A stretch of DNA of 64,000 bases from Candidatus Kaiserbacteria bacterium (GTDB lineage: Bacteria; Patescibacteriota; Minisyncoccia; Phycocordibacterales; Phycocordibacteraceae): assembly GCA_027451665.1 (NCBI GenBank), contig DAIDIW010000002.1, positions 48,251 through 112,250 on the forward strand, in the 5' to 3' direction. The position numbers and the translations under genes were made by a program. The notes under the pieces were generated by a model. It ran no database searches, was not told where the DNA came from, and worked only from the letters and a program-made list of their open reading frames with translations. Below, piece after piece: positions 1,839 to 58,133 of the stretch (within the stretch, counting starts at the first letter, position 1; each line of letters starts with the position of its first letter).

Positions 1839-2429
1839 CTAAAGCGGGAGCGCGTGCGTGAGAGAAGGAGCGCCGTTTAACGCTTCACGCAGCCACCCGC
1901 TCGTGTCGAGCTTCACCTCGCGCTTTTCACGCAAATCCTTGTAGCGGAGCGAGCCTTTCTCGAGCGCGTGGTCGAAAAGCTCTTTCGTGATACGGACGTC
2001 CTGGATGCAATAGGCGCGCACCTTCTCGATTTCGCCGGCGGCCCACCATTCCTGGGCCAAAAGGCCGTCGGCGGACTTTCCCTTACCGAGCGTCGCTTCC
2101 GCGAGCGATTGGAGGCGCAGACGCCGTCCGAGCACGGCGTATACCTCGGCCATGAGATCGAGCGAACGGATGCGCGTGAGGTCACCTGGGTAGTAGCGAT
2201 TCAAGAGCGGTATGTCGAAGCTGTCAGAGTTATACCCGATGAACAGATCGGTTGATTCGAGTATCGGCCAGAGCGCGGGTAATTCTTCGCGCGTGTAGGA
2301 TTTATAGGTCGCATCCGCCGAATCGTAGAGTGCGAGGAGCGTCAATTCCTGATCGTCGAGATCGATACGACCGCGTACCAGAGTGCCGCTTTTCGAAATG
2401 CTCTCAATGTCGAAGACGAGATAGCGCAT
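1839..2429 (-). CDS. 3'-5' exonuclease, RNase H-like fold (DnaQ/PolB-exo-like)
   Basis: 'VFDIE' Exo I-like motif, 'YNSDSFDIPLL' and 'CIQDV'. Its start ATG overlaps the hisS stop (TAATG). Confidence 0.5.
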   Translation of the reverse strand: MRYLVFDIESISKSGTLVRGRIDLDDQELTLLALYDSADATYKSYTREELPALWPILESTDLFIGYNSDSFDIPLLNRYYPGDLTRIRSLDLMAEVYAVLGRRLRLQSLAEATLGKGKSADGLLAQEWWAAGEIEKVRAYCIQDVRITKELFDHALEKGSLRYKDLREKREVKLDTSGWLREALNGAPSLTHALPL

Positions 2430-3688
2430 TATCGTACGAAAGAGGGGAGCGCGTCGATCGAGAATGCCGTCTCCACACCGGTCGACAGCGTCTTCACGCG
2501 CATCGCATTATTTGCGAGTTCATCCGCTCCATAGGCGGCAAAGAAGGGTATGCCGCGCTTCACGGCATCTTTTACCTGGTCGCCGAGCCCCCTCTCGGTG
2601 AGATTCACGAATACCCGGACGCCGCGCGTGCGTAACTTCGCAGCGAACGCTTGGGCTGCGGGCACATCCTCCTGCCGAGGTGTCCCGAGATAGAGCTGCG
2701 GACGCGCTCTCCCGGTATCGAGCGGAAGCTTGTGCGCTTCGATGAAATCCGAGAGCGTGACGTCACCGAGCGCGAAACCGATTGCCGGGATGGGATCGCC
2801 TCCAAAAAGCGCGACGAGACGGTCATAGCGGCCGCCTCCAAAAAGCGCGCGCGGATTAGCGGGATCGGTGTCATAGAGCTCGAATACCATTCCGGTGTAA
2901 TAGTCGAATCCGCGTGTGATCGTCGGGTCGAAGACGGCATTGCTGACGCCGCGTGCGGAAAGCGCGGTGAGCCGGTCGAGGAGTCGCTTCTTCTCTTCCG
3001 CGACGGCCGGGTCCCGGCCGGCGTCCACGATGAATGCGAGCGGATCCTTGCTCGTAATCGCGCTTCGCGCCGCATTAAAGGCTTCAGGCGTCATCTTGTC
3101 CTTCTTATCGAGGAGCCGAAGATACGCGCGCACGCCGTCTTCGGTAAGACCGGCAGCGGTACACGCCGCGTTCAAGAGCGGACGTGCATTCACGCGGATT
3201 ACGAAGTCGCGCTCGGCCGCACCAAGATCCTTCATGAGCGTTGCGGCGAGCGCAAGCGTTTCGATGTCCGCTTCGCCCTCAGGAAGCCCGAGGACATCGA
3301 TGTCGCACTGGTAAAACTCACGGAGCCGTCCCTTCTGCGGTCGCTCATAGCGGAAACGGTTGCCAATTGAGAACCAGCGTAGCGGAAAGGCAAGTTCGCG
3401 GCGTTTGCCCGCGACCATGCGCGCCAAGGTCGGCGTCATCTCAGGGCGAAGCGTGACGCGGCGATCGCCGCGATCCGTAAAGGTATAGGTCTGCTCGTTC
3501 ACTATCTCTTCCGAGGTTTTCGCTTCGTAGAGCTCAGCGCGCTCGAGCGGGGATGCCTGGTATTCCTCGAAGCCGGCGAGCGCGAGCGTTTCCCGGAGCC
3601 GCGCGAACATAGCCTCCATTCGCGCCCAATCGGCAGGATAGAAGTCGCGCACCCCTTTGTACGGTTCTGTCGTAAGCTTTTCGCTCAT
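2429..3688 (-). CDS. hisS: histidyl-tRNA synthetase
   Basis: Class II aaRS motifs 'GVRDF', 'RPEMTP' and 'GGRYD', plus a C-terminal anticodon-binding domain. Confidence 0.9.
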   Translation of the reverse strand: MSEKLTTEPYKGVRDFYPADWARMEAMFARLRETLALAGFEEYQASPLERAELYEAKTSEEIVNEQTYTFTDRGDRRVTLRPEMTPTLARMVAGKRRELAFPLRWFSIGNRFRYERPQKGRLREFYQCDIDVLGLPEGEADIETLALAATLMKDLGAAERDFVIRVNARPLLNAACTAAGLTEDGVRAYLRLLDKKDKMTPEAFNAARSAITSKDPLAFIVDAGRDPAVAEEKKRLLDRLTALSARGVSNAVFDPTITRGFDYYTGMVFELYDTDPANPRALFGGGRYDRLVALFGGDPIPAIGFALGDVTLSDFIEAHKLPLDTGRARPQLYLGTPRQEDVPAAQAFAAKLRTRGVRVFVNLTERGLGDQVKDAVKRGIPFFAAYGADELANNAMRVKTLSTGVETAFSIDALPSFVR

Positions 3689-5341: not shown

Positions 5342-5791
5342 ATGCGTTTCCACGTCTGGCACACGCTGCTGTCGGTCTTCTATGCGGCGCTCGCCGTCCT
5401 CGCGTATCTCTGGCTCGCCGCCACGCAGCGTCTCACGGGCTACCTGTCTGCGGGCGAATTCATCCTGATCGCGCTCGCGATACAGCGGCTCGTGCGTCTG
5501 TTCACGTACGACGCGATAACGGCATTCATCCGTGAGTGGTTCGCCGGTGCCGATCCCCGCAGTTTCCGCGGTTCGCTCGGGACGCTCATAAACTGCCCCT
5601 GGTGTACCGGTCTCTGGTTCGCGCTCGTCGTCGTATTCTGCTATTTCAGGTGGCCGACGGCGAGCTGGTATGCCATCCTCGTCCTCGCGCTCTCCTCGGT
5701 CGCTTCGATGCTGCAGCTCTTCGCGAACTATCTCGGATGGAGCGCCGAATCGCGTAAGCAAGCGTGCAAGCCGATGCCGCTCCCGCGCTAG
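5342..5791 (+). CDS. DUF1360-family membrane protein
   Basis: 'NCPWCTGLW' motif and four predicted TM segments. Confidence 0.5.
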   Translation: MRFHVWHTLLSVFYAALAVLAYLWLAATQRLTGYLSAGEFILIALAIQRLVRLFTYDAITAFIREWFAGADPRSFRGSLGTLINCPWCTGLWFALVVVFCYFRWPTASWYAILVLALSSVASMLQLFANYLGWSAESRKQACKPMPLPR

Positions 5792-5893
5792 CTTCCGACT
5801 GGTCTCGCGCGAGTCGCGTCTCTGTGCTCTACTGTGTGCAGCTTGTGAGATTCACAGGTCTTTGAGCGTAAGCTCTACGAGAGGGGGGCAGGT

Positions 5894-6361
5894 ATGGCTT
5901 GGACAGACGAACAAGTAGAGCGGCTTCGTTCCTTGTGGACCGAAGGACTTAGCGCGAGCGAGATCGCGGTGGCACTCCACCCCGTGACTCGGAACGCGGT
6001 CATAGGTAAGATACATCGCCTCGGGCTTGCGGGGAGGCGAGTCGCATCTCTCAGTGAGCGACCGCGGCTCTTAAGAGCTCCGCGGCTGCCAAAGCTCGGA
6101 CCGCAGGAGCTTCCTCCGTCTCCGGCGCTTCCAGTCACGTATGACGAGCCGCCGCCAGTGCGGCTTGATGACGGTGAACTGGTCGGCATCCTTGCAGTCA
6201 ACGATCGCACGTGCCGATGGCCGATTGGCGACCCGAGCGAGGATGGTTTCCACTTCTGCGGAAGAAAGCCGGAACCAGGCTCGCCGTATTGCGATCACCA
6301 TAAGCGCAGGGCGCATCAGCCGCCGAATGAGAAGCGGCTGAAAGGGACGATGCGCTCATGA
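5894..6361 (+). CDS. gcrA: GcrA-family cell-cycle/transcription regulator
   Basis: N-terminus 'MAWTDEQVERLRSLWTEGLSASEIA...VTRNAVIGKIHRLGL' and C-terminus 'CRWPIGDP...FHFCG...PYCDHH' match the two conserved GcrA domains. Confidence 0.8.
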   Translation: MAWTDEQVERLRSLWTEGLSASEIAVALHPVTRNAVIGKIHRLGLAGRRVASLSERPRLLRAPRLPKLGPQELPPSPALPVTYDEPPPVRLDDGELVGILAVNDRTCRWPIGDPSEDGFHFCGRKPEPGSPYCDHHKRRAHQPPNEKRLKGTMRS

Positions 6362-6429
6362 ACATACGTGCCGGCGGGGAGCGTTGCTCCCTGCCGGTTT
6401 TCTTCTGGGCATGCTGCGGATGTACGCAA

Positions 6430-6455
6430 GACGCCCGCGCATATGCGCGGGCGTC
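6430..6455. terminator. perfect 26-bp GC-rich palindrome between the convergent gcrA and RRM genes, likely a bidirectional terminator
   Basis: GACGCCCGCGCATATGCGCGGGCGTC followed by 'ttctgttcc'. A second hairpin plus T-tract lies at about 6375-6410. Confidence 0.5.
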
Positions 6456-6478
6456 TTCTGTTCCCAGCGAGGGAGCGA

Positions 6479-6814
6479 TTAGTAACCGCCGCGACCGAAG
6501 CCTCCGCGATCACCGCCGCCGAAACCGCCTTCGCGGCGCGGGGGGCGATCACCCTGCGGGCGAGCGAAGGAGACCGAGAGCGTGCGCCCGTCGAAGTCCT
6601 TGCCGTCCCAGCGATCGATAGCCGCCTGAGCCTCCTCCGGAGAGGACATCTCGACGAAACCGAAACCGCGCGAACGGCCGGTCATGCGATCGCTGATAAT
6701 GCTCGCGGAAACGACCGAGCCAGCCTCAGAAAAGGCCTTCTTGAGGTCATCTTCCGTCGAGCGGTAAGGGATACCGCCCACGTAGAGCTTGTTCCCCTGG
6801 ACTGAATTATCCAT
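6479..6814 (-). CDS. RRM-type RNA-binding protein with a Gly/Arg-rich tail (start trimmed to 'MDNSVQGNKLYVGG')
   Basis: RNP-2 'LYVGGI' and RNP-1 'RGFGFVEM' are present. The C-terminus is 'GGFGGGDRGGFGRGG'. Confidence 0.8.
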   Translation of the reverse strand: MDNSVQGNKLYVGGIPYRSTEDDLKKAFSEAGSVVSASIISDRMTGRSRGFGFVEMSSPEEAQAAIDRWDGKDFDGRTLSVSFARPQGDRPPRREGGFGGGDRGGFGRGGY

Positions 6815-31927: not shown

Positions 31928-32377
31928 ATGGCTCACACACCTAAACATCCCCACGCACGCGCGAGACGCACCGCGGCTGTGCAGGTCGGCATGGCCGTAC
32001 GACGTTCTTCGGCCGGGCTCGGGCTCTTTGCGACGCGCCCGTATAAGAAAGGAGAGACGGTAATCGAGTACGTGGGGCGCGAGCTTCCGGAAGCGGAGTG
32101 GTATACGAGCCGCAGCCGCTACCTTTTCGAAGTGAATGCGAGAAAGACGATCGATGGGAAGCCGGCGTGGAATATTGCTGGATACATCAATCATTCCTGC
32201 CGTCCGAATTGCGAGCCGGTGATCCGTAACGCGCGCGTCTTTATCAAAACGCGCCGGGCGATCATACCGGGTGAGGAGTTCACCTACGATTACGGTAGGG
32301 AATATTTCGACGATTACATCAAGCCGTTTGGCTGCCGTTGCGCCGCATGCGCACGTAAGCGGCGAAAGGGGAGCTAG
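31928..32377 (+). CDS. SET-domain protein-lysine methyltransferase
   Basis: 'GYINHSCRPNC' SET core, 'EELTYDY'-like 'EEFTYDYG', and post-SET Cys cluster 'CRCAAC'. TAGAAT at 31913-18 ends 10 nt before the ATG, suggesting a near-leaderless mRNA. Confidence 0.8.
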   Translation: MAHTPKHPHARARRTAAVQVGMAVRRSSAGLGLFATRPYKKGETVIEYVGRELPEAEWYTSRSRYLFEVNARKTIDGKPAWNIAGYINHSCRPNCEPVIRNARVFIKTRRAIIPGEEFTYDYGREYFDDYIKPFGCRCAACARKRRKGS

Positions 32378-32750: not shown

Positions 32751-32768
32751 GGTGAACCATGGTTCACC
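32751..32768 (+). promoter_or_regulatory. LexA operator (Cheo-type SOS box) in the lexA promoter spacer, with the -10 TATAAT at 32769-74
   Basis: Perfect 18-bp palindrome GGTGAACCATGGTTCACC containing GAAC-N4-GTTC. It lies between TTGTAT (-35, 32745-50) and TATAAT. Confidence 0.7.
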
Positions 32769-32781
32769 TATAATGTATCGT

Positions 32782-33351
32782 ATGTCATACGAAGAACAAC
32801 GCGGGAGATTGCTTATGTTCTATGCGCGGCACAGGCGTATGCCGGGGTATCAGGAGCTCATGCGGCTCATGGGATTCCGCTCGAAGAACGCAGCCTACAA
32901 GCTTATCGGTCGATTCGTTGAGGACGGCGTTCTCGACAAGGACGCGAAAGGACACATTGCGCCGGGTAGGATCCTCCGTGGCGCGCGATTACTGGGAGTG
33001 GTCGAGGCTGGATTCCCGTCGCCGGCGGAAGAAGAACTCCTCGACATCATGGATTTCGATGAATATCTCGTTCCGAATAAAGAAGCCGCGTACATTCTTA
33101 AGGTGAAGGGGGATTCGATGATTGAGGCCGGCATTCAGCCGGGGGACATGGTCATCGTCGAGCGCCGGCAGACGTATAAGCCCGGGCAGATCGTCATCGC
33201 GAACGTGGACGGTGAGTACACCATGAAATACCTGCGCCGTGAGCGCGATCGTTATTATCTTGAGCCGGCAAATGCGAAATATAAGCCCCTCTACCCGGCG
33301 GAGCACCTCGACATCGAGGCGGTCGTGACCGGGGTCGTGCGCAAATACTGA
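32782..33351 (+). CDS. lexA: LexA repressor (S24 peptidase); start set at the ATG just after the -10 box (leaderless)
   Basis: N-terminal wHTH, then 'VKGDSMIEAGI' (catalytic Ser) and '...K...' of the S24 LexA/UmuD family. Confidence 0.85.
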   Translation: MSYEEQRGRLLMFYARHRRMPGYQELMRLMGFRSKNAAYKLIGRFVEDGVLDKDAKGHIAPGRILRGARLLGVVEAGFPSPAEEELLDIMDFDEYLVPNKEAAYILKVKGDSMIEAGIQPGDMVIVERRQTYKPGQIVIANVDGEYTMKYLRRERDRYYLEPANAKYKPLYPAEHLDIEAVVTGVVRKY

Positions 33352-33421: not shown

Positions 33422-34726
33422 ATGACGTGGGGAATCTCGCAATCGTATCCGCGCGCGATACTCCATGTCGACGGAGATGCGTTTTTTGCGTCCTGCGAAG
33501 TGGCGAAGGAACCTGCGCTACGCGGGAAGCCGGTTATTACGGGGAAGGAACGCGGCATCGTTTCGGCTGCGACCTACGAGGCGAAGGCGCGCGGCGTTGT
33601 GCGCAGCATGAAGCTCCATGAGGCGAAACGGGTCTGCCCGGACGCAATCATCCTGCCTTCCGATTATGAGACGTACGCGCTCTTCTCGGCCCGCATGTAT
33701 GCGGTTGTCCGTCGCTATACGAATTCGGTCGAGGAGTACGGCATCGACGAATGCTTCGCGGACATTACGGGACTCAGGCGCACTCATCGTATGGGGTATG
33801 CGGAAATCGCCGCGGCGATTAAGCGGGAACTCGAAGCGGAGCTCGGCATGACGTTCTCGGTGGGACTCTCCTGTACGAAGACCTTGGCGAAGGTTGGCTC
33901 GAAATGGCAGAAGCCTTCCGGGCTCACGTGCGTCCCGCTGTTTGCCGCGTCGCGCTTTCTCGATGGGCTCTCGGTAGGGAAGGTTTGGGGTATCGGCCCC
34001 AATACCGCTGCGTTTCTCGCACTGCACGAGGTCACCACCGCAGGACAGTTCGCGAGGAAGGATGAGGCGTGGGTGAAGGCAAAACTCACGAAGCCGTCCA
34101 TCGAGACCTGGCAGGAATTGAACGGCGTCGTAGCGCTTCCGCTCGATACAAAAGGACGCGAGGGCTATCAATCCATCTCGAAGACGAAGACGTTCACGCC
34201 GCCGTCAATCGATCCGGTCTTTATCCTCGCACAGCTTTCTAAGAACGTAGAGAACGCGTGTATCAAGGCACGGCGCTGGAATCTCGCGACAGCGAAGGTC
34301 TTCTTTTTCCTGAAGACGCAGGATTTCCGGTATCACGGTTGCGAGGTGCGGCTTCCATACGCGACTAATCAGCCGCATGAGATACTCACCGAGGTGAAGC
34401 AATACGTGCCGAAGGTATTCAGAAAGGGAACCGCCTATCGCGCAACCGGCATCACGCTCTGCGAGCTCAAGGAAGCAGCGAGCGTGCAGCTCGACCTTTT
34501 CGGTGCAGTGGCGACCTCGTCAGCGCGCGCAGCGGTCTATGCGAGTGTCGATGAGATCGCGGCGAAGTACGGGAAGCATGCGGTTTTCCTCGGCTCTTCC
34601 TGGTACGCGATGCAGCATGTCGCGCATGAAGGCGCGCGCGGCGATACGCCCGTCCGTACGAAGAATCTTTTCAAAGGCGAGACCGCACGCAAGCGGCTCA
34701 ACCTGCCGCTGCTGGGGGAGGTTTGA
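33422..34726 (+). CDS. dinB: DNA polymerase IV (Y-family)
   Basis: 'ILHVDGDAFFASCE' and 'SIDECFADITG' Y-family palm motifs. It lies 70 nt downstream of lexA. Confidence 0.85.
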   Translation: MTWGISQSYPRAILHVDGDAFFASCEVAKEPALRGKPVITGKERGIVSAATYEAKARGVVRSMKLHEAKRVCPDAIILPSDYETYALFSARMYAVVRRYTNSVEEYGIDECFADITGLRRTHRMGYAEIAAAIKRELEAELGMTFSVGLSCTKTLAKVGSKWQKPSGLTCVPLFAASRFLDGLSVGKVWGIGPNTAAFLALHEVTTAGQFARKDEAWVKAKLTKPSIETWQELNGVVALPLDTKGREGYQSISKTKTFTPPSIDPVFILAQLSKNVENACIKARRWNLATAKVFFFLKTQDFRYHGCEVRLPYATNQPHEILTEVKQYVPKVFRKGTAYRATGITLCELKEAASVQLDLFGAVATSSARAAVYASVDEIAAKYGKHAVFLGSSWYAMQHVAHEGARGDTPVRTKNLFKGETARKRLNLPLLGEV

Positions 34727-34876: not shown

Positions 34877-35758
34877 ATGAATCGCTACCTCTTCCTTATC
34901 ATCCTTGGGATCATGGCCTCGATTGCGCTCTTCGCGCTCTCGCTTGGGGGCAGCCATATCGTGCTGTTCTCTCCGCAGGGTTATATCGCGAAGCGCGAAG
35001 TCGCGCTCATGGCGCTCGCACTTCGGCTCATGCTTATCATTGTGATTCCGGTGTTCGCGCTCACTTTCGCCATCGCCTGGCACTATCGCGCGGGGAACGC
35101 TAAGGCACGCTACCTTCCAAACTGGGAGCATAACCGGCTGGAAGAAGCGATCTGGTGGGCAGTGCCGTTCCTCATCATTATCGCGCTCGCGAGCATCACC
35201 TGGACTTCCTCGCACGCGCTCGATTCGTACAAGGGGATCGCAACGTCGACGCCGGCGCTCGAAATTGATGTCGTTGCGCTCGATTGGAAATGGCTGTTCA
35301 TCTATCCCGCACAAAGGATCGCCACCGTGAACACGCTTACAATCCCGACGGGCACGCCGATTGCCTTCAAACTCACTGCGGATGCGCCCATGAATGCGCT
35401 TTGGATACCGCAGCTCTCGGGGCAGGAGATGGCGATGCCCGGCATGGTGACCGAGCTTCATATCGAGGCTGACGCGCCCGGAGCGTACCACGGGCTCTCT
35501 GGCAATTACAGCGGCGCCGGGTTCGCCGGGATGCAGTTCACCGCGCATGCGGTATCGAAGTCTGCTTTCGGCGCTTGGGTCGCCGAGACGCGTATGTCCA
35601 CCTCGACGCTTGATCGCGTAACGTATGCGTCGCTCGCCGCGCCGAGCGAGAATGTCGCGCCCGAGCGCTACGTGCTCGGTGATCCGGGCTTGTATACTTG
35701 GATCGTGATGAAATACATGACGCCGCCGGCCGCCTCGTCGACGCCGGCCTCCGGATGA
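34877..35758 (+). CDS. cyoA: quinol oxidase subunit II (CyoA/QoxA-like; no obvious CuA ligands)
   Basis: Two N-terminal TM helices, then a cupredoxin-like domain. It is adjacent to cyoB. Confidence 0.7.
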   Translation: MNRYLFLIILGIMASIALFALSLGGSHIVLFSPQGYIAKREVALMALALRLMLIIVIPVFALTFAIAWHYRAGNAKARYLPNWEHNRLEEAIWWAVPFLIIIALASITWTSSHALDSYKGIATSTPALEIDVVALDWKWLFIYPAQRIATVNTLTIPTGTPIAFKLTADAPMNALWIPQLSGQEMAMPGMVTELHIEADAPGAYHGLSGNYSGAGFAGMQFTAHAVSKSAFGAWVAETRMSTSTLDRVTYASLAAPSENVAPERYVLGDPGLYTWIVMKYMTPPAASSTPASG

Positions 35759-35760
35759 CT

Positions 35761-37716
35761 ATGCTTGGAAGACTCACGTTTGCCGCCCTCGAGCAGGGCC
35801 CCATCGTCTTCGCCGCACAGATGCTCGTGCTTTTCGGCGCGCTCGGTGTTGCTGCGCTCATTACCTATCTGAAACGCTGGAAGTGGCTCTGGAACGAGTA
35901 TCTCACATCGCTCGATGCGAAGAAGATCGGCATCATGTATCTCGTCGTTGCGGCCGTAATGCTCGTCCGCGGCGGCATCGACGCGCTTATGATGCGCGCA
36001 CAGCAGGCGGTCGCGGTGGGGAATAATGCCGGCTACCTACCGCCGGAGCACTTCGCGCAGGTATTCACCGGGCACGGCGTCATCATGATTTTCTTCGTTG
36101 CGATGCCGCTCATGTTTGGCATCATGAACGTGATCCTGCCAGTCATGCTCGGGACGCGCGATGTCGCGTACCCGTTCCTGAACTCGGTCTCGTTCTATCT
36201 CTTTACCGCGGGTGCGGCGCTTGTGATGGCTTCGCTTGTGATAGGGCAGTTCGCGACGACCGGATGGACTGCCTACCCGCCGCTCTCAGAGCTCGCCTAT
36301 AGTCCGGGCGTCGGCGTCGACTACTACATCTGGGCGCTCCAGATCTCGGGCATCGGGACCCTTCTCGCCGGCATCAATTTTATAGTGACGATCCTTAAGA
36401 AGCGTGCGCCCGGCATGTCTCTCATGAAGATGCCGATGTATGCCTGGACGGTGCTCGGAAGCATGATGCTTGTCGTCACTGCGTTTCCGGTGCTTACGGC
36501 TACGCTCGGATTGCTCACCCTCGATCGCTATCTCGGCATGCATTTTTTCACGGCGGGCGGCGGCGGCAATATGATGATGTACGTGAACCTGTTCTGGGCG
36601 TGGGGCCACCCTGAGGTCTATATCCTCGTACTTCCGGCGTTCGGCGTCTTCAGCGAGGTCGTTGCAACGTTCTCTGGGAAGCGGCTCTTCGGCTATACCT
36701 CCATGGTGATCGCAACGATGGCGATTACGATTCTTTCGTGGCTCGTCTGGCTACATCATTTCTTCACCATGGGCGCGGGCGCGGATGTGAACGCCTTCTT
36801 CGGCATTATGACGATGATCATTGCCATTCCGACGGGCGTGAAGATCTTCAACTGGCTCTTTACCATGTATCGTGGCCGCGTACGCTTCACGACGCCGATG
36901 CGCTGGTTCCTCGGATTCGTCGCGCTCTTTACGATTGGCGGCATGGCGGGCGTGCTTATGGCAGTGCCGCCGGCAGATTTCGAGCTCCACGAAAGCCTGT
37001 TCCTTGTCGCGCACTTCCACACGATGATCGTCTCCGGCGTTCTTTTCGGCGATTTTGCGGCGCTCGCGTACTGGTTCCCGAAAGTGTTCGGATTCACGCT
37101 CTCGGAAAAGTGGGGGATACGCGCGTTCTGGGCCTGGACGGTGGGGTTCATGCTCGCCTTCATCCCGCTTTATGTGCTCGGCTTCATGGGCGCCACGCGC
37201 CGGCTTGATCACTATCCGGCCGGGCTCGGATGGAATCCGCTCTTCATCGTCGCTGGCGTTGGTGCGCTTGTAATCGCTTCGGGCGTCGTATGCCAGGCGA
37301 TTCAACTCTATGTGAGCATTCGCGACCGTCGGAAGAATCGAGACTTGACCGGAGATCCGTGGGACGGACGGACGCTCGAGTGGTCGACTCCCTCTCCCGT
37401 CCCGTTCTATAACTTCGCAAGGACGCCAATAGTCGCTATCCGTGATCCGTTCTGGGCGGTGAAGTACGGTCTGGCGCCTCAGACGCCGGAGAACGACTAT
37501 CTTTCCATCGAGCTGCCGCGCGGGAGCGGTCTTGGGCTCGTCATTGGCGGAGCCGCCTTCGCCTTCGCCTTCGCGATGGTCTGGCATATCTGGTGGCTCG
37601 TGATGCTCGGCGCGCTCGTGATGCTCGGCGCGCTCTTTGTGCGCTTCCTCGACGAGGATACCGAGTCAATCATCTCTGCCGATACTCTGCGCCGCTTTGA
37701 TACCGCTACCGTATGA
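35761..37716 (+). CDS. cyoB: quinol oxidase subunit I (heme-copper oxidase catalytic subunit)
   Basis: 'WAWGHPEVYILVLP' CuB/His region and 'HFHTMIVSG' conserved HCO motifs. Confidence 0.9.
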   Translation: MLGRLTFAALEQGPIVFAAQMLVLFGALGVAALITYLKRWKWLWNEYLTSLDAKKIGIMYLVVAAVMLVRGGIDALMMRAQQAVAVGNNAGYLPPEHFAQVFTGHGVIMIFFVAMPLMFGIMNVILPVMLGTRDVAYPFLNSVSFYLFTAGAALVMASLVIGQFATTGWTAYPPLSELAYSPGVGVDYYIWALQISGIGTLLAGINFIVTILKKRAPGMSLMKMPMYAWTVLGSMMLVVTAFPVLTATLGLLTLDRYLGMHFFTAGGGGNMMMYVNLFWAWGHPEVYILVLPAFGVFSEVVATFSGKRLFGYTSMVIATMAITILSWLVWLHHFFTMGAGADVNAFFGIMTMIIAIPTGVKIFNWLFTMYRGRVRFTTPMRWFLGFVALFTIGGMAGVLMAVPPADFELHESLFLVAHFHTMIVSGVLFGDFAALAYWFPKVFGFTLSEKWGIRAFWAWTVGFMLAFIPLYVLGFMGATRRLDHYPAGLGWNPLFIVAGVGALVIASGVVCQAIQLYVSIRDRRKNRDLTGDPWDGRTLEWSTPSPVPFYNFARTPIVAIRDPFWAVKYGLAPQTPENDYLSIELPRGSGLGLVIGGAAFAFAFAMVWHIWWLVMLGALVMLGALFVRFLDEDTESIISADTLRRFDTATV

Positions 37717-38327
37717 CGCGCGATCTCCTCGTACCGTCCGTTCAGGTCACCGTGCCGCCGTTCACGGAACGTCGCGAGATAACGCTGCTCGGTTTCTGGA
37801 TCTATCTCCTCTCGGATGCCATCATCTTCGCCTGTCTGTTTGCAACCTATGCCGTCCTGCACGTCAACACATTCGGCGGCCCTGGGGCCCGCGATCTCTT
37901 CTCGCTGCCCTATGTGCTTCTAGAGACCTTCGTGCTTCTCGTCTCAAGCTTCACGGCTGGGCTCGGGGCGCTTGCCGCCTATCGCGGCAATGCGCGACAG
38001 GTACTCGGCTGGTTCTCCGTGACGCTCCTCCTCGGGCTCGCATTCCTCTCCCTTGAGGCGCACGAATTCGTCGGCCTTGTCGCGGGAGGACACGGACCCG
38101 CGCAAAGCGGATTCCTCTCTTCCTACTTCACGCTCGTCGGAACGCACGGGCTTCACGTCGCCCTCGGATCATTCTGGATGCTCTTTATGCTCATCGCTGT
38201 CTACCTTCGGGGGCTTACGGAAACGAACGTGCGCCGTCTCACGATGCTCTCGCTGTTCTGGCATTTCCTCGATGTGATATGGATCTTCATCTTTACCATC
38301 GTGTATCTGCTCCCCTTCATTAAGTGA
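37713..38327 (+). CDS. cyoC: quinol oxidase subunit III
   Basis: Five TM segments and a 'WHFLDVIW' subunit III motif. It overlaps cyoB by 4 nt. Confidence 0.85.
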   Translation: MTRDLLVPSVQVTVPPFTERREITLLGFWIYLLSDAIIFACLFATYAVLHVNTFGGPGARDLFSLPYVLLETFVLLVSSFTAGLGALAAYRGNARQVLGWFSVTLLLGLAFLSLEAHEFVGLVAGGHGPAQSGFLSSYFTLVGTHGLHVALGSFWMLFMLIAVYLRGLTETNVRRLTMLSLFWHFLDVIWIFIFTIVYLLPFIK

Positions 38328-38677
38328 ATATGGATTCTTACCGCGGCACATTTGGGACCTATATCGCCGGCTTCGTCGGTTCGCTCGTGTGTACGTGTGC
38401 CGCATACTATCTTGTGGTCGTGCATCCGGCTGCGCCCGCGCTCATTCTCGCAGCGGTAATCGCGCTCGCAACGTTCCAGTTTGGTGTGCAGCTCGTACTG
38501 TTTCTTCACTTGGGACGCAGTGCGAAGGTCTGGAATGTCGTCGCCTTTGCCTTCGCGTTCATCATTGTATGCATCGTGGTCGCCGGGTCGCTTTGGATCA
38601 TGCAGAACCTGAGCGGCCGGATGATGCCGTCGCAGGCGCAGATGATGCAATATATGAACAATCAGGATTCTCTGTGA
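38324..38677 (+). CDS. cyoD: quinol oxidase subunit IV
   Basis: Small three-TM protein overlapping cyoC by 4 nt. Confidence 0.65.
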   Translation: MNMDSYRGTFGTYIAGFVGSLVCTCAAYYLVVVHPAAPALILAAVIALATFQFGVQLVLFLHLGRSAKVWNVVAFAFAFIIVCIVVAGSLWIMQNLSGRMMPSQAQMMQYMNNQDSL

Positions 38678-41914: not shown

Positions 41915-43378
41915 TCAGCGTCGCGTTCTTCGCCAGATGAACGGGGCGAGGCCAATTTTCTCGGGGAGGCGGTTGAGGTACGGTATGTAGGGGAAGGTAA
42001 TCACCACAATCATAAGCAGGCCAAGTATCTCCGCGGCGTCTCTATCGCCGTACGCCTTGTCCGGCAGATCGAAGACGTAATTCGAGAGGGCTAGCGGCAT
42101 GAGCCACCACGATCCTGGAGGCAGCTTATAGACGCTCCCAGTTTCGTCTTTCACCATGCCCCATTCGACAGTGCTCATGTGGAGCGCCGCCGCGCGCTCT
42201 TCGGGAATTCCCATGTCGTCGAGAAAACGTAGGCTATAGGTGTAGTTGATGCTCGGGTTCTCGTTATCCAGGATCGATTCATAGAGGCCGCTCTTTGTCA
42301 TAGGAATGAGCGTTTGCAGCATCTCAATAACCGGGTTCGAGCTCGTCGCGTACCTGGTCTCGTCTGAGGACGATGCGAACCGATATGCCTGTGCGATATA
42401 CGCGCGCTGTGCGTCCGGGGAAGCGTGCGTAAATGCCTCCCACGCATCTGGCGTGACTACGGGCGGCGTCCCTGATGCGGTCAAAGCAGGCTGCCTGCTT
42501 TGGAGGTACGTCTCATAGGGAGACACCACATATACTCGCCGCGTATCGAAGGAGTATGGGTCAATAGAGTCAAGATAGGTTGCGGTATCGGAGGTATGAT
42601 CGAATTCCTGGAGGAGGGTGGTCGTCACGAGTGGCTGGCGCACGCGGGCAATGTCTGCGATACGTACCGACGGTACGTACGGCGAATGGAAAAAGAAGGC
42701 AAGCGTAAGTATGACGAGCAAGAGCGCAAGTCCGCGCTCATACATGATGCGGTGATTCGCCGCTTCCATCGTATAAGAAATGTCCGACCGGTATGGTTTT
42801 GCGATGCCGTACGTATGTTCAAGCAAATAGTGCGCAATGAAGAGTACGAAGATCGTGAGAGGGATAAGCGCGACGTGTATCAGGAACGTCTGCGAATAGT
42901 TTAAGGGGTTCAGCCAATAGCCGAGGTATGCACCGTTCCAGAAATCAGCTCCGGAGACGGCCCGGAATTGCGACGCGAAATCTCCGCGTAACCCATAGCC
43001 GAATTCCGTCTGAATGAGCGCTAGACAGAAGATGGTTGCCCCGAACACCCAGACCATGCGCCGCGGCTTCCGAAAGCCGCTCGTCGTGAAGCCTACGAGC
43101 CCATGCAGGATAAGGATGAAAATAAAGGCCTGGACTGTCCACAGATGCACGCTGCGTACGTAAATGCCCCAAGGGTTAAAAAGCCACCAATTTTGACCCA
43201 TAAAGGCCAACGTGAGACCTGAAATACCGAGAAGGACGAGACAGGTGAGCGCGAGAAAACCGAGACCGTAGAATATGGTGTTGCCGTAGGAGGGAAGTCG
43301 GTGAAAATAGACTTTATCGAGGATTGTATGCAGCGCATTGGTATCGGGACTATACTCGTGAACCTCGTCGGGTGTCAT
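41915..43378 (-). CDS. di-heme cytochrome b N-terminal domain fused to a non-canonical, mostly hydrophilic ~280-aa C-terminal region
   Basis: Paired His in 'VRSVHLWTVQAFIFILILH' and 'FLIHVALIPLTIFVLFIAHYLL' (cyt b/b6 helices B and D). No Rieske or cytochrome c gene is adjacent. Confidence 0.55.
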   Translation of the reverse strand: MTPDEVHEYSPDTNALHTILDKVYFHRLPSYGNTIFYGLGFLALTCLVLLGISGLTLAFMGQNWWLFNPWGIYVRSVHLWTVQAFIFILILHGLVGFTTSGFRKPRRMVWVFGATIFCLALIQTEFGYGLRGDFASQFRAVSGADFWNGAYLGYWLNPLNYSQTFLIHVALIPLTIFVLFIAHYLLEHTYGIAKPYRSDISYTMEAANHRIMYERGLALLLVILTLAFFFHSPYVPSVRIADIARVRQPLVTTTLLQEFDHTSDTATYLDSIDPYSFDTRRVYVVSPYETYLQSRQPALTASGTPPVVTPDAWEAFTHASPDAQRAYIAQAYRFASSSDETRYATSSNPVIEMLQTLIPMTKSGLYESILDNENPSINYTYSLRFLDDMGIPEERAAALHMSTVEWGMVKDETGSVYKLPPGSWWLMPLALSNYVFDLPDKAYGDRDAAEILGLLMIVVITFPYIPYLNRLPEKIGLAPFIWRRTRR

Positions 43379-44801: not shown

Positions 44802-45620
44802 ATGCCAGACATCGCACCCCTCAGTCTTGCCAGCAACGCACTCGACACCTTCGCCAAGTGGGCGCGGGTCATGGAGAGGGCGGGCGTCACGTACGACCAG
44901 CTCGTGCTGCCAATCAACAGCCGGACGGCGCGCCGGAACCTCGCCGAATACCTGAAGGCGGGCTGCCCGAAGCTGGGAAACGCAACCGCAACAGCCGATC
45001 CCGCACCGCTCACCGGCTACGACCTCGCCTCGATCATCCTCGGGAAGGATTTCATTCGTCCCGACGAGGTCGCGGCGAACCGCCCCGGCGTCGTATACAG
45101 CGACGAGCAGTTCGAATCGTTCGAGAACATGCTGCCCGGCCGCGAGGAACTCGAAGAGCTTCGCGACGATGGCTATATGCTCGTCCCTGGTCCCGCGCAA
45201 CCGATGGCGCTCCTCGACATCCGCAGCCTCAAACCCGGCTACTTCTACACGAAAACGGGCGGCTGGTATGCGGAGGAGAAGCAGCGCTTCTCGCGCGAAG
45301 ATCGCGCCCCGACGAAGTGGCTCAAGCTCCGCAAGGGGCCGGTGCCGAACTCGACGGGCAAGAACTGGGACGAACAAAGCCCGCTCCTCTCGGCCGTCGA
45401 GCACGTCCCGAACGACGCCGAAGTCGAATGGGCCGTGACGACGTACAAGGCCGTCCGGGGCATCTACCTGCTCCCGAACGTCTACGTGCGCACGTCCAGT
45501 CGCACCGCTGGCGGCAGTCGCGTCGACGTGGGCCGCTTCGACGCCGAGGGTCTCGACGTCAACGACGTCTGGGGCGACGGCCGCTTCTCTTACTTGGGCC
45601 TGGCGTCTGCTCGGGAGTGA
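44802..45620 (+). CDS. hypothetical protein (start 44802 'MPDIAPL', or the ATG at 44745 inside the hairpin)
   Basis: No motif recognised. Hairpins followed by T-tracts at about 45640-45720 look like terminators. Confidence 0.35.
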   Translation: MPDIAPLSLASNALDTFAKWARVMERAGVTYDQLVLPINSRTARRNLAEYLKAGCPKLGNATATADPAPLTGYDLASIILGKDFIRPDEVAANRPGVVYSDEQFESFENMLPGREELEELRDDGYMLVPGPAQPMALLDIRSLKPGYFYTKTGGWYAEEKQRFSREDRAPTKWLKLRKGPVPNSTGKNWDEQSPLLSAVEHVPNDAEVEWAVTTYKAVRGIYLLPNVYVRTSSRTAGGSRVDVGRFDAEGLDVNDVWGDGRFSYLGLASARE

Positions 45621-47227: not shown

Positions 47228-47482
47228 ATGAAGCAGCGACGCATCGCTCCAGAACTCAAGGAGCAGATACTTGGGCGCATTAAGAACGACGGCGTCTCCG
47301 TCTCGCAGGCGGCCGCCGATCACGGCGTGAACCCCACCACCATATATGAGTGGCTCAAGGCAGGCATCGAAAGCGGTCCCTCATACGCAGAACGCTCCCG
47401 CCTGAAGAGGGAGAACCTCGACTTGAAGCTCCTCGTGGGCGAGATGACGCTCCGCCTCTCCGAGGCCCAAAAAAAGAGGTGA
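47228..47482 (+). CDS. IS3-family transposase OrfA (HTH)
   Basis: 'SVSQAAADHGVNPTTIYEWLK' HTH and a leucine-zipper-like C-terminus. A slippery A AAA AAG heptamer at 47470-47476 is followed by the stop. Confidence 0.8.
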   Translation: MKQRRIAPELKEQILGRIKNDGVSVSQAAADHGVNPTTIYEWLKAGIESGPSYAERSRLKRENLDLKLLVGEMTLRLSEAQKKR

Positions 47483-48294
47483 GGAGCGCATACCGTGCGA
47501 ACACCGCGCTCCTCGCGCGGCAGCTCGGCGTGTCTCGCCGGAGCCTGTACCACCGCCCCCGCATGGAAGCGAAGGATTGGGCGCTCAAGGTGCGGATCGA
47601 AGAAGCGCTCAGAGAATTCCCCGCATACGGGCACCGCCGCTTGGCGCTTCACCTTCGCGCCAACAAGAAGCGGGTGCGCCGCGTGATGAAGAAGTTCGGC
47701 ATCAAGCCGTATCGAAGGAGGGTACGGCACTGGAAGAAACCGAGGAAACTGCTCGGTATCTATCCGAACCTCCTCATGACCATGCGGCCGTCCTTCCCGC
47801 ACCACGCCTGGGCGGCAGACTTCACGCATATCCTCTGGCGGGAACACGACATCCGCATGGCGACCGTGGTGGACATCTTCACGCGCAGGATCGTGGGCCT
47901 CGCGATTGGGACCCGCGGCGGCACCGCCCTCGTGACCGCCGCGCTCTGCAACGCGCTCCTGGCACATCCCCGCCCTGTCCTCTTCCACAGCGACAATGGG
48001 GTTGAGTATGACGCATGTTCCTTCCGGAGACTTCTCGATTCGCTTGACATCCGCATCTCACGGAGCAAGAAGGGCTGTCCCTGGGAGAACGGGTACCAGG
48101 AGAGCTTCTATGACAAGTTCAAGATCGACCTCGGGGATCCGAACCGCTTCGAGACGCTCGGCGAACTCACCGCAGAACTCTATGCGGCCGTGCATGCATA
48201 CAACACCCGCCGCATACATTCCACGCTTCGCATGCCGCCACAAGAATTCGCAGCAAGGCACGCACGTGCTACGCTATTAGCAATCCCAAGTTAG
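47350..48294 (+). CDS. IS3-family transposase OrfB (DDE integrase core), expressed as OrfAB by -1 frameshifting at 47470-47476
   Basis: After the frameshift the reading continues 'KKEVRSAYRANTALLARQ'. DDE motifs 'HSDNGVEY' and 'CPWENGYQES' are present. Confidence 0.8.
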   Translation: MAQGRHRKRSLIRRTLPPEEGEPRLEAPRGRDDAPPLRGPKKEVRSAYRANTALLARQLGVSRRSLYHRPRMEAKDWALKVRIEEALREFPAYGHRRLALHLRANKKRVRRVMKKFGIKPYRRRVRHWKKPRKLLGIYPNLLMTMRPSFPHHAWAADFTHILWREHDIRMATVVDIFTRRIVGLAIGTRGGTALVTAALCNALLAHPRPVLFHSDNGVEYDACSFRRLLDSLDIRISRSKKGCPWENGYQESFYDKFKIDLGDPNRFETLGELTAELYAAVHAYNTRRIHSTLRMPPQEFAARHARATLLAIPS

Positions 48295-50705: not shown

Positions 50706-50779
50706 GGCAAAACCTCTCTATTGAGGAGGACCATTCCTCCACGATACAGAGTGCCACAAAAACGTATGCTTTTCAATAG

Positions 50780-50909
50780 AAAAAGTTCGAGTCCTATCCG
50801 CGAGCGGATGGGACTCGAATTTTTTGACTCATTTCTAAGTCACGATATGTTGCATTTCCTCACTATTTTCTGGACGGGAATGGGTCGGATGCACAGGAAT
50901 CATCTGCTC
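50780..50909. repeat. copy A of a ~130-bp imperfect direct repeat; contains a bidirectional terminator-like hairpin (50780-50826)
   Basis: About 80% identical to 52282-52412. Hairpin GTTCGAGTCCTATCCGC/GCGGATGGGACTCGAA flanked by AAAAA and TTTTTT. Confidence 0.6.
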
Positions 50910-50985
50910 TGGGGATGCGATCCTAACTCTCAAAATATCCTTGCTTTATCTCGCACTCGATGGCGATGGGATTCGAACCTGGATC

Positions 50986-51035: not shown

Positions 51036-52151
51036 CTATTCGCCCGGAGGCTCGAGCACCATGTCGTTTATCGGTCCAAAGACAGTTTTGCGTTCGCCAT
51101 CTTCGACGCAGCCGACTTCAAGCGCTTCGTAGCCGGCCGTTTTCGCGATGGCCAGAACCCGATCGGCTTCGTTCACTGGAACGAAGACGTAGTAGCCAAC
51201 GCCCCAGTTGAAGGTGGTAATGCAATCCTTGTCCGAGACCCCGAGCTCCCACATGAAGCGGAAGAGCGGCGGCACCTCCGGCCAGGAGTGGATGCGGTAG
51301 GTGTGCGGGCGATGGTCGAAGGCGACCTTCGCGACGCCGCTCCCCGTTCCTGGCAGGAGCGCGTGGATGTCCACCCCGTGATTGAGGAGCGTCTCAACGA
51401 GTCCGACATAACACCGCGTCGGAATAAGCGCCTCATCGCCGAGCGTATTGCCACCCGGCAGTTTAGCGAGGAACTTATCCGGAAGATCCATCGCCCGCTT
51501 GATAACGAGCGATACACCATTGGCGTGCAAGCCGGAGCTCGTAATGCCGATGATGCGATCGCCGGTCGCGAGCTTGCTGCCGTCAATCAGGTTGCTAAGC
51601 GGCGCGATGATGCCTGTGACGCAGCCGCTCAACGATGGCGCACTCTTGACCGGTTCCTGCGCACGAACCAGATATTTGAGCGCAGGAGATTCGCCGGCGA
51701 CGAGTGCCATGCCAGACATCTTGCAGGCCTCGTAAAAGCCCTGCGCGAGGTCTTGAGCACGCTTCACATCTTGGAACCATTCACTGTCTCCGGCGGCGAC
51801 CTCGTCCACATACGCCACGGGCATTGCGCCCTGGGCGATGCAATCGTTCACCGCCATCATTGCGTTGTCGATGCCGATGCCGCGATAGTGCGGGTCGCCG
51901 GTACCGTCGTTCTGCTACATCCACTCGGCGATCCAATTCTTGTTCCCGAGGCCTTCCATGGTATTGCACCAGGCGTGTTTGTAGTTGCCCTCGTAGCGGA
52001 AGATGCCGCCGTGTGAGTGCAGCACGCTGGTGTTGATGAATACCTGTCGTGCTTCGGGGAAGCCGACAGTACGTTTGGCGGTCGCAATCATTGCGTCCTT
52101 GAAGGGCTCGATCTTGGTGTAATCGACTCCAGCCTTCGCATATTCGCTCAT
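51036..52151 (-). pseudogene. purM: phosphoribosylformylglycinamidine cyclo-ligase (AIR synthase) interrupted by an in-frame TAG at 51915-51917
   Basis: The N-terminal ORF 'MSEYAKAGVDYTKI...' and the C-terminal ORF '...GITSSGLHANGVSLV...' are in the same frame, and the 18 codons between them also align to PurM. A single amber codon separates them. Confidence 0.65.
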
Positions 52152-52281
52152 TTTTACTCTCGCTTTCGTTGAGTTTTGGTGGTTTGTGCTGGTCTGTCGG
52201 TCATCCTACAGACGTCTCTCGGGAAGGCAAGCAACGACACAATATCGGGCGGGGGAATTTTGTAATCCGGACTCGGGATAT

Positions 52282-52412
52282 AAAAAGTTCGAGTCCCATC
52301 CAAGGGCGGATAGGACTCGAACTTTCTTGACTCTTCACGAATCTAGAATGTGTTGCGATTGCTCGCTTTTTTCCGGACGGGAATGGGTCGGTTGCACAGA
52401 AATCATCTGCTC
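52282..52412. repeat. copy B of the ~130-bp direct repeat; this copy is the 3' trailer of tRNA-Asn and carries a minus-strand terminator hairpin (52284-52329)
   Basis: Alignment with 50780-50909; the hairpin position has compensatory differences. Confidence 0.6.
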
Positions 52413-52481
52413 CGCGGGTAGGATTCGAACCTACGACCAATCGGTTAACAGCCGACCGCTCTACCACTGAGCTACCGCGGA
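52410..52481 (-). tRNA. tRNA-Asn (anticodon GTT)
   Basis: Folded by hand: acceptor TCCGCGG/CCGCGGA, D-arm GCTC-AGTGGTA-GAGC, anticodon loop CTGTTAA, T-arm GTAGG-TTCGAAT-CCTAC, discriminator G. No encoded CCA. Confidence 0.85.
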
Positions 52482-57098: not shown

Positions 57099-58133
57099 AT
57101 GCGGCTAATGGCATTCTTCTCGCCCAAGCTCGGCATCGATCTCGGTACCACGAATGTGCTTGTTTTTGTCCCTGGCAAGGGCGTCGTCATAAACGAGCCG
57201 TCAGTCGTCGCGGTCGGCAAGGATCGCGGGAAGGGCGGCAAGAGCAAGATCCTCGCCATTGGGAGTGCGGCGAAGGAGATGATAGGCAGGACGCCCGAAG
57301 ACATCATCGCGTACCGTCCGATGAAGGATGGCGTCATCGCAGATTATCGCGTTACGGAAGCGATGCTGCGTTACTTCATCCGCAAGGCGCTCGGCTGGAA
57401 TCCCTTCAAGCCGACCGTGCTCGTCTCGGTGCCGGCGGGTGTGACCTCTACGGAGAAGCGCGCGGTCATCGAGGCTGCGATCAAGGCAGGGGCGAAGAAC
57501 GCGTATGTGGTAAAGGAGCCGATCCTTGCCGCGATTGGCGCAGGGATACCGATCCACGAACCTATGGGACGAATGGTCGCGGACATCGGCGGCGGGACGA
57601 TCGACGTCGCCGTGATATCGCTCGGCGGGATCGTCGCAAGCACGTCCGTCAAATGCGCAGGCAACCGCCTTGACCGCGCCATCGTGGATTACGTGAAGCG
57701 TCAGTACAACCTTGCGATAGGCGATAAGACCGCAGAGGAGATAAAGATCCGAATCGGCGCCGCAGTGCCGATGAACGAGGAGCTCACAATTGCCGTGAAG
57801 GGGCGCGATCAGGTATCAGGACTGCCGCGCACGGTTGAACTCTCAACGAACGATATTGCGCAGGCGATGGTGCGCGAGTTGCGCGAGATGACGCAGGCGG
57901 TCCGGAAGGTCCTTCAGGATACGCCGCCGGAACTTGCCGCGGATATCATCGACAATGGCATCATTCTCACAGGTGGCACCTCGCAGCTCCGCCAGATTAC
58001 GGAACTCATCTACCGGCGGACTGGGGTCATCGCGAAGCTCGCGAACGATCCGTATTACTGCGTGGCGCGCGGCACGGGCATAGCGCTGAAACATCTCGAT
58101 ACGTACGAGAAAAGCGTGATGGCGAAGGGGTAA
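57099..58133 (+). CDS. mreB: rod-shape determining actin homologue MreB (copy 1)
   Basis: 'GIDLGTTNVLVFV', 'DIGGGTIDVAVIS' and 'TGGTSQL' actin-fold motifs. Confidence 0.9.
   Translation: MRLMAFFSPKLGIDLGTTNVLVFVPGKGVVINEPSVVAVGKDRGKGGKSKILAIGSAAKEMIGRTPEDIIAYRPMKDGVIADYRVTEAMLRYFIRKALGWNPFKPTVLVSVPAGVTSTEKRAVIEAAIKAGAKNAYVVKEPILAAIGAGIPIHEPMGRMVADIGGGTIDVAVISLGGIVASTSVKCAGNRLDRAIVDYVKRQYNLAIGDKTAEEIKIRIGAAVPMNEELTIAVKGRDQVSGLPRTVELSTNDIAQAMVRELREMTQAVRKVLQDTPPELAADIIDNGIILTGGTSQLRQITELIYRRTGVIAKLANDPYYCVARGTGIALKHLDTYEKSVMAKG

Follow-up and report, generated by a model that had tools for sequence, protein, structure and literature searches.

A GcrA-family regulator gene in a Paceibacteria genome and its probable acquisition from an alphaproteobacterium

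GcrA is a cell-cycle regulator of Alphaproteobacteria that is paired with the CcrM methylase and with a specific surface of sigma70 (PMC3667746, PMC5887438, PMC4647560). A gene of this family was found in a 64,000-nucleotide stretch of contig DAIDIW010000002.1 (assembly GCA_027451665.1, deposited as Candidatus Kaiserbacteria bacterium), hereafter the window. The locus raises the question of how such a gene reached a genome of the candidate phyla radiation (CPR), and whether its product can still act there. The account favoured here, considered probable with appreciable doubt, is that of a horizontally acquired, retained and DNA-binding GcrA in a lineage of Paceibacteria.

Family membership and host

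The single long open reading frame with family support between positions 5762 and 6361 was gcrA as listed in Table 1. The start at 5762 proposed in an earlier interpretation made from the letters alone (the sequence-only reading) takes in the final codons of DUF1360, the gene before it, and a 102-bp spacer. A search with the Pfam GcrA profile (PF07750) had been set beforehand as the test that could refute membership; residues 1-148 matched profile positions 1-152 of 155 with 146.5 bits, against a gathering cutoff of 26.9. The 155-residue protein was aligned end to end with Caulobacter crescentus GcrA (chain 7YE1_G, E 2.5e-34). Separate matches were obtained to the crystallised Caulobacter DNA-binding domain (DBD; 5YIU/5YIV) and sigma-interacting domain (SID; 5YIX_B), and both signature regions that had been read from the letters, the DBD and the SID with its CCCH zinc motif, were recovered. 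The product is confirmed as a genuine full-length GcrA-family protein.

A structural model was built with AlphaFold2 from 32 sequences. The DBD was modelled with a predicted local distance difference test (pLDDT) score above 90 and superposed on 5YIV_A with a root mean square deviation of 0.9 Å and a template modelling (TM) score of 0.92. The SID gave a weak fold match to 5YIX_B (TM score 0.58). Model confidence was low in this zinc domain, as expected, because the model was built without metal. The basic tail at the C terminus is the equivalent of the GcrA basic patch, which touches the discriminator region (PMC9976885).

The G+C content of the window is 59%. Its histidyl-tRNA synthetase (HisRS; 2429-3688, minus strand) is 68-76% identical to those of metagenome-assembled genomes (MAGs) labelled Candidatus Paceibacterota, Parcubacteria group (GW2011_GWA1_56_13) or Patescibacteria, and the identity drops to ~47% against Kaiserbacteria and ~30% against Firmicutes. 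At least 16 kb were collinear with a Paceibacteria MAG contig (GCA_027348575.1) in the order PDDEXK-DsbA-exonuclease-HisRS-bPH-PrmC-like-DUF1360-GcrA-RRM-DUF5666-like-FtsX-ABC-HlyD-...-FAD oxidase-...-PIF1, where RRM is an RNA recognition motif protein. The gene order dnaG-rpoD-...-HisRS-...-RRM-FtsX-...-PIF1 was likewise matched to a Paceibacteria MAG. HisRS identity and synteny place the genome in Paceibacteria and not in Alphaproteobacteria; the host is a Paceibacteria/Parcubacteria (CPR) bacterium.

The sequence-only reading had argued for a host outside Alphaproteobacteria from the lexA operator and the gene content, and both observations hold. The operator is of the Cheo type, GAAC-N4-GTTC, and no GTTC-N7-GTTC direct repeat was found near lexA. 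The operator lies within an 18-bp palindrome, GGTGAACCATGGTTCACC, abutting a TATAAT just before the Peptidase_S24 open reading frame. A COX1/COX3 oxidase, GH57, GH15 and two mreB paralogues were all verified in the window.

Insertion site, donor and age of the gene

The region between the DUF1360 and RRM genes was compared with the syntenic site in ten relatives, eight of which lack gcrA and have tight junctions. In four of them (L005, L008, L009 and L010) the RRM gene stands beside the PrmC-like gene without DUF1360 or gcrA; in L003 the RRM gene neighbours DUF1360 at a distance of ~126 bp, again without gcrA. Apart from the window, one sister lineage alone (L001/L125) has an equally oriented GcrA-like gene between the DUF1360 and RRM genes. 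These arrangements show gcrA to be an insertion between the DUF1360 gene and the RRM-protein gene. No flanking direct repeats of note were found around gcrA, and its flanks are conserved housekeeping genes with no phage genes around. GC content and skew are continuous across the gene, and with no such anomaly a compositional island was ruled out. No terminator was found between the DUF1360 gene and gcrA, so co-transcription or read-through is possible. The terminator and the G-rich run resembling a ribosome-binding site (RBS) of gcrA are intact, which supports a retained gene.

Among 5.8 billion protein clusters the best matches to the window protein were ~63% identical, and the named ones were from Rhizomicrobium sp. 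or Alphaproteobacteria. The two best matches inspected adjoin argD-argF-hslO and phoU-phoB-phoR genes and are therefore ordinary chromosomal gcrA genes. The GcrA superfamily comprised 24,370 cluster representatives at E<=1e-3, and 150 diverse representatives were compared. Members of a Rhizomicrobium-like clade were 61-67% identical to the window protein and any other representative at most 56%. The window protein and this clade share a short linker and the FHFCGRKP..GSPYC loop, and by neighbour joining the former was placed, on a long branch, as sister to the clade as a whole. A phage origin was rejected, as homologues in phage records and IMG/VR were at most 43% identical. Acquisition from a Rhizomicrobium/Micropepsales-like alphaproteobacterium is well supported by these comparisons.

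The sister lineage carries its copy (P0121) at the same locus and in the same orientation, with DUF1360 before it and a convergent RRM gene after it. P0121 is 30% identical to the window GcrA, while HisRS is 76% identical between the two lineages. It passes the Pfam GcrA profile marginally (31.7 bits), retains the zinc ligands, the GSPYC-type spacing and, in the SID, the W/F/F/Y aromatic core, and is identical in sequence on 9 contigs from several samples. Because the locus and the clade-specific features are shared, the two copies argue for a single acquisition that would predate the split of both lineages; similarity alone is no proof of this. A CPR-specific GcrA family was considered and rejected, the search of the 5.8-billion-cluster database with P0121 having returned only P0121 itself. 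C-terminal to its zinc ribbon, P0121 also has a short second copy of the GcrA N-terminal motif (WxxxxxERLxxLW; WSSAELERLQRLW), which suggests a past tandem duplication or fusion.

The locus common to two lineages, together with the very large size of the superfamily, would also fit a native gene, with GcrA ancestral in this CPR family and lost in most members. That explanation is very unlikely in view of the empty syntenic site in 8 of 10 relatives, with its tight junctions, and of the clade-specific indels (short linker, GSPYC insertion, FHFCGRKP) shared with a single alphaproteobacterial subgroup that is also the closest in identity.

The G+C content at third codon positions (GC3) was 0.635 for gcrA, compared with a mean of 0.72 ± 0.05 for window genes and 0.82-0.85 for the nearest alphaproteobacterial gcrA genes. 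The codon log-likelihood of host versus donor table was +0.155 for gcrA, +0.092 ± 0.036 for window genes and -0.085 for donor-contig genes. Codon usage is thus host-like, so the transfer was not recent and residence has been long, if the donor resembled the sampled clade. The same values bear on an assembly or binning artefact, in which an alphaproteobacterial fragment would have been mis-joined into a CPR contig. Such an artefact would fit the alphaproteobacterial origin of the closest homologues, and the exact protein is not on record elsewhere. The gene is, however, just 468 bp long, with CPR genes in conserved order within ~100 bp on both sides and continuous GC and skew; its codon usage is unlike that of the donor clade, and exactly this position is occupied by a GcrA-like gene in an independent MAG lineage as well. 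A mis-join is scarcely credible.

Conservation, sigma factor partner and GANTC sites

Residue lists were drawn from the Caulobacter structures (PMC5887438). The residues of the DNA backbone, base and methyl-pocket contacts are identical in the window protein at 14 of 14 positions (M1, W3, W15, S20, A21, S22, T32, R33, N34, I37, G38, K39, H41 and R42). The CCCH zinc motif is complete (C107-X14-C122-X10-C133-X2-H136), and the zinc loop, one residue longer than in Caulobacter (X10 versus X9), has the same length in the donor clade. Against 120 alphaproteobacterial homologues, clade-invariant positions were changed at 22 of 87 and variable positions at 38 of 68 (Fisher p = 1.3e-4); none of the 18 DNA-contact and zinc residues was changed. 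This pattern supports the view that the substitutions are non-random and that selection has kept the gene intact.

Alanine substitution of six GcrA residues (W120, G129, F130, F132, Y142 and Y151) abolishes sigma70 binding (PMC5887438). Equivalents of the first five are retained in the window protein. In the wider sigma-contact set, which adds K119 and D124, 6 of 8 residues are identical; at K119 both the window protein and the donor clade have Arg, a conservative change.

The course of events proposed here would begin with an ancestor of the Paceibacteria lineage that gained gcrA from a Rhizomicrobium/Micropepsales-like alphaproteobacterium, the gene being inserted between those for DUF1360 and the RRM protein. 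Long residence would then have led to the adoption of host codon usage, with selection keeping the gene intact. GcrA would have stayed a sequence-specific transcription factor, its unchanged DBD recognising GANTC-type (YGAKTCG-like) sites. We infer that gcrA is expressed and that its product binds DNA; continued sequence-specific binding is proposed because the DNA-reading surface is perfectly conserved.

Several results, from the protein itself, its sister copy, the sigma factor and the DNA of the window, weigh against a retained and working GcrA. The branch of the window protein has a length of 0.26 against a median terminal branch of 0.03, although an unsampled donor lineage could account for part of this length. 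With the NCBIfam equivalog model of the sigma70 cofactor GcrA (NF050816), the protein scored 138.1 bits, below the cutoff of 280. Y151, essential in two-hybrid assays, is His in the window protein, as it is in 14 of 160 family members. The scan upstream of gcrA found no consensus sigma-70 promoter. The DBD of P0121 is degenerate, having lost the equivalents of R33, N34, K39, H41 and R42 and gained a 24-residue insertion, a sign that constraint may be weak in at least one lineage.

The sigma factor belongs among these points. The window organism's own rpoD is outside the window and, by synteny, should lie just before position 1; sigmaA was therefore examined in six relatives (L003, L005, L008, L009, L036 and L125, the last from the sister lineage). 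Residues 128-147 of Caulobacter sigma70 are LLSREGEIAIAKRIEAGRDT, as checked on chain 7YE1_F, whose positions are offset by one from the numbering of the paper. In the six relatives the sigmaA sequence is LLTAAEERELAKRIEKGD(A/S)E, followed directly by region 2.1 without the non-conserved region (NCR); their LLTAAEERELAKRIEKG stands against LLSREGEIAIAKRIEAG in Caulobacter. At the positions of the GcrA docking groove (L128, L129, G133, A136, K139, R140 and A143) the six relatives have L, L, E133, E136, K, R and K143. In two-hybrid assays GcrA binding was diminished by each of the substitutions G133E, A136E and A143R, and the interface between GcrA and sigma70 includes the NCR coiled coil (PMC5887438). 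Canonical sigma70 docking is thus unlikely in the window host, judging from these alignments, unless the interface has changed. With the docking surface absent from the relatives' sigmaA, any activation would need another mode of sigmaA binding or would work through DNA binding alone.

The C-terminal helix of the SID (HHKRRAH) was considered as a basic compensation for the acidic E133 and E136 of CPR sigmaA. This was rejected, since H135, R139, H141 and the net charge of +2 are all found elsewhere in the family. As a separate observation, the N terminus of sigmaA in this Paceibacteria family is extended by a long Lys/Ala-rich stretch, and the protein is near-invariant across genomes whose HisRS is only ~70% identical (six rpoD genes).

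Pfam and motif searches found no DNA methyltransferase within the 64-kb window. The sole NPPY protein is a PrmC/HemK-like enzyme that is also present in relatives without gcrA. GANTC occurs at 236 sites (3.69/kb), equal to the mononucleotide expectation, with an observed/expected ratio of 0.90 at Markov order 3; in CPR relatives that lack gcrA the density is 2.3-3.2/kb. Two alphaproteobacterial contigs with the nearest gcrA genes, used as positive controls, have 0.73-1.13/kb and ratios of 0.43-0.59. GANTC density in the window is weakly higher in intergenic (4.7/kb) than in coding sequence (3.5/kb). The genomic signature of a CcrM/GcrA pair is absent from the window, and the link to CcrM-type methylation implied by the sequence-only reading finds no backing there, with neither a DNA methyltransferase in 64 kb nor avoidance of GANTC.

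That reading had also placed a palindrome, TGTGA-gat-TCACA, on a GANTC site in the gcrA promoter region. The motif is real, its centre (5850) lying 1 nt from that of the GANTC site (5851); as a signal it is within chance. The palindrome pattern, with up to 1 mismatch, was present in 55 of 100 shuffles, and ~0.4 GANTC sites are expected per 102 bp at the density of the window. The Caulobacter GcrA consensus is YGAKTCG, and CGAGTCG at 5810-5816 fits it; the GANTC site that this holds, within its 11-bp palindrome, is likewise no more than chance would give. YGAKTCG sites cluster around gcrA (5746, 5810 and 6038), and a comparable group occurs within an unrelated oxidase gene (12.77-13.27 kb). Autoregulation through the upstream GANTC or palindrome sites is possible but unsupported.

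Two further observations concern short motifs in the window. Unlike GANTC, the motifs GGNCC, CTNAG and AGNCT are much rarer than expected (0.30, 0.36 and 0.44 of expectation, respectively), which could reflect restriction-modification pressure or codon effects. A GANTC cluster at 52.27-52.34 kb comes from hairpins resembling tRNA T-arms in a 150-bp repeat and is unrelated to GcrA. This direct repeat (50776-50927 and 52278-52430; 76-85% identical, ~1.5 kb apart) encloses an AIR-synthase-related gene (51036-51860), and its two copies each start with a perfect hairpin resembling a T-arm, AAAAAGTTCGAGTCC...GGACTCGAA. Next to one copy lies tRNA-Asn (52409-52481, minus strand), next to the other a remnant resembling a tRNA 3' half (~50957-50978). 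The repeat may be a duplicated tRNA flank or a scar like that of a phage attachment (att) site.

Several of the points above are what a functionless passenger would leave, an open reading frame with no working partner in the CPR cell that is drifting to loss, and this is the most serious rival. It would account for the docking determinants missing from the relatives' sigmaA, for a 64-kb window with neither GANTC signature nor methyltransferase, for the long branch with 22 otherwise invariant positions replaced, for a sister copy with a strongly degenerate DBD and without any relative in 5.8 billion clusters, and for the lack of gcrA in most relatives. Drift sits poorly with 0 of 18 DNA-contact or zinc residues changed when ~25% of the other invariant positions are, and with codon amelioration, which implies long residence without an inactivating mutation. 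The intact terminator and RBS-like signals also speak against it, as does a P0121 that is identical across contigs and samples with its zinc ribbon kept. On balance a passenger is rather unlikely, and a retained, DNA-binding GcrA is preferred.

The mismatch with the sigma factor also admits a factor directed at a host: an episymbiotic CPR cell would use the captured GcrA against the sigma70- and CcrM-dependent cell-cycle transcription of an alphaproteobacterium, comparable to the carriage of GcrA-like genes by large Caulobacter phages. The SID and DBD residues do suit alphaproteobacterial partners (sigma70 and methylated GANTC) better than they suit anything that the CPR genome shows, and GcrA homologues encoded by phages exist. 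The donor clade and several relatives come from SMAG-named MAG sets, which we take to be soil samples. No signal peptide or secretion-associated domain was found in the protein, however, its N terminus being the native MAWTDEQ; no secretion genes adjoin gcrA, and this CPR lineage has no known host. Protein injection by Paceibacteria has, to our knowledge, not been demonstrated. This explanation is speculative and held to be highly improbable, and the preferred reading remains a GcrA that binds DNA in its own Paceibacteria cell.

Window features, known systems and significance

Table 1. Positions of the gcrA gene, its parts and surroundings, the lexA region and the sister copy (window coordinates except for the last row)
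Feature	Position	Strand	Remarks
DUF1360 membrane-protein gene	5342..5791	+	Pfam PF07098; upstream of gcrA
Spacer upstream of gcrA	5792..5893	+	102 bp
GAGTC within CGAGTCG	5811-5815		CGAGTCG at 5810-5816, inside the 11-bp palindrome CGCGAGTCGCG (5808-5818)
Palindrome TGTGAGATTCACA	5844-5856		GATTC at 5849-5853
G-rich RBS-like run GAGGGGGG	5881-5888	+	from the sequence
gcrA-family gene	5894..6361	+	155 aa, coordinates include the stop codon; Pfam PF07750 and 7YE1_G alignment
N-terminal DBD	5894..6037	+	aa 1-48; three-helix bundle
Pro/Arg-rich unstructured linker	6038..6178	+	aa 49-95; pLDDT below 50; short-linker type of the Rhizomicrobium-like clade
Second CGAGTCG, inside the linker	6038-6044	+	motif search
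SID	6179..6331	+	aa 96-146; aligns to 5YIX_B
Basic C-terminal tail EKRLKGTMRS	6332..6358	+	by 7YE1_G alignment
Intrinsic terminator hairpin and T-run	6370..6408	+	directly after the gcrA stop codon; 13-pair stem, 10 GC, then TTTCTTCT
Terminator hairpin of the RRM gene	6428-6457		
Convergent RRM RNA-binding protein gene	6479..6814	-	Pfam RRM_1; conserved CPR flank, 60-84% identical in relatives
lexA operator GAACCATGGTTC	32754..32765		GAAC-N4-GTTC; upstream of the LexA-like gene
Peptidase_S24 (LexA-like) gene	32783-33351		
Y-family polymerase gene	33422-34726		after the LexA-like gene
P0121, GcrA-like gene of the sister lineage	L001 2004-2612 = L125 10001-10555	- (L001); + (L125)	GCA_027348575.1

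Other genes were noted elsewhere in the window. A SET-domain protein (31928-32377, plus strand, 76 bits), a putative lysine methyltransferase, lies just upstream of the lexA-dinB pair. A heme-copper oxidase (35698-38677 and 41915-43378) is represented by subunits I and III (COX1 with 466 bits, and COX3), a small open reading frame resembling subunit IV and a cytochrome b-like protein; respiratory genes in a CPR genome are possibly another horizontal acquisition. The MreB paralogues (57099-58133 and 62646-63620, both on the plus strand) are 45% identical to each other. In the poorly annotated interval of 45.6-49.2 kb, an open reading frame at 47350-48294 (plus strand) has an rve integrase core and an HTH_21 domain, as in transposases of the insertion sequence (IS) type. 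A tRNA-Thr (45408-45484, minus strand) was called by ARAGORN and is absent from the Rfam scan output.

The reference for the family is GcrA of Caulobacter crescentus (CC_2245; PDB 5YIV, 5YIX and 7YE1), the sigma70 cofactor that reads N6-methyladenine (m6A) in GANTC. The window protein has the same full-length, two-domain architecture and is 48% identical to it overall and ~70% in the DBD. The two have in common all DNA-contact and methyl-pocket residues, the CCCH ligands, the basic C-terminal tail and W120, G129, F130, F132 and Y142. Unlike the Caulobacter protein, that of the window is from a CPR host, has a linker 20 residues shorter, C-X10-C in place of C-X9-C and His in place of Y151. The partners differ as well: sigmaA of the relatives is without the NCR and carries E/E/K at 133/136/143, and the window shows neither a CcrM nor avoidance of GANTC. 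It also lacks the gcrA neighbourhood of Alphaproteobacteria (argD-argF-hslO), the neighbours being the DUF1360 and RRM genes.

The nearest known proteins are the chromosomal GcrA of Rhizomicrobium-like bacteria (Micropepsales; 148-150 aa; P0001, P0003 and P0018), which in addition to the short linker and loop have a C-terminal ending of the ..RMAS type in common with the window protein. Their genes differ in standing beside argD-argF-hslO and phoU-phoB; the contigs that carry them have a GC3 near 0.8 and are strongly depleted in GANTC. GcrA-like proteins of phages (Caulobacter phiCbK-like, Brevundimonas and Synechococcus phages) are likewise found outside the cellular alphaproteobacterial chromosome and are 28-43% identical. 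With such phage-borne genes, the family is known to move (see also PMC3556154).

A literature search, covering the papers of one library, found none that mentions GcrA together with Patescibacteria. The family, its mechanism and its phage-borne copies are already known; what is new is a GcrA in an unexpected phylum. A bolder possibility, regarded as unlikely, is that GcrA is functional in a CPR host whose sigmaA lacks the known docking surface, either through a second, NCR-independent way of engaging RNA polymerase or as a captured regulator used against the sigma70 of an alphaproteobacterial host. If the first route were true, and with a still unseen GANTC methylase, an ultra-small CPR cell would have gained an m6A-reading transcription circuit. 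If the gene were inert, it would be an ordinary relic of horizontal transfer. The locus provides a concrete case of the transfer of a regulatory gene from Alphaproteobacteria to a reduced CPR genome. It also offers a natural experiment, in which an intact, codon-ameliorated and conserved GcrA is found in a phylum whose sigmaA naturally carries substitutions that abolish binding, and the activities of GcrA that persist without the native partners, be it the reading of DNA and m6A or sigma docking, can there be tested directly.

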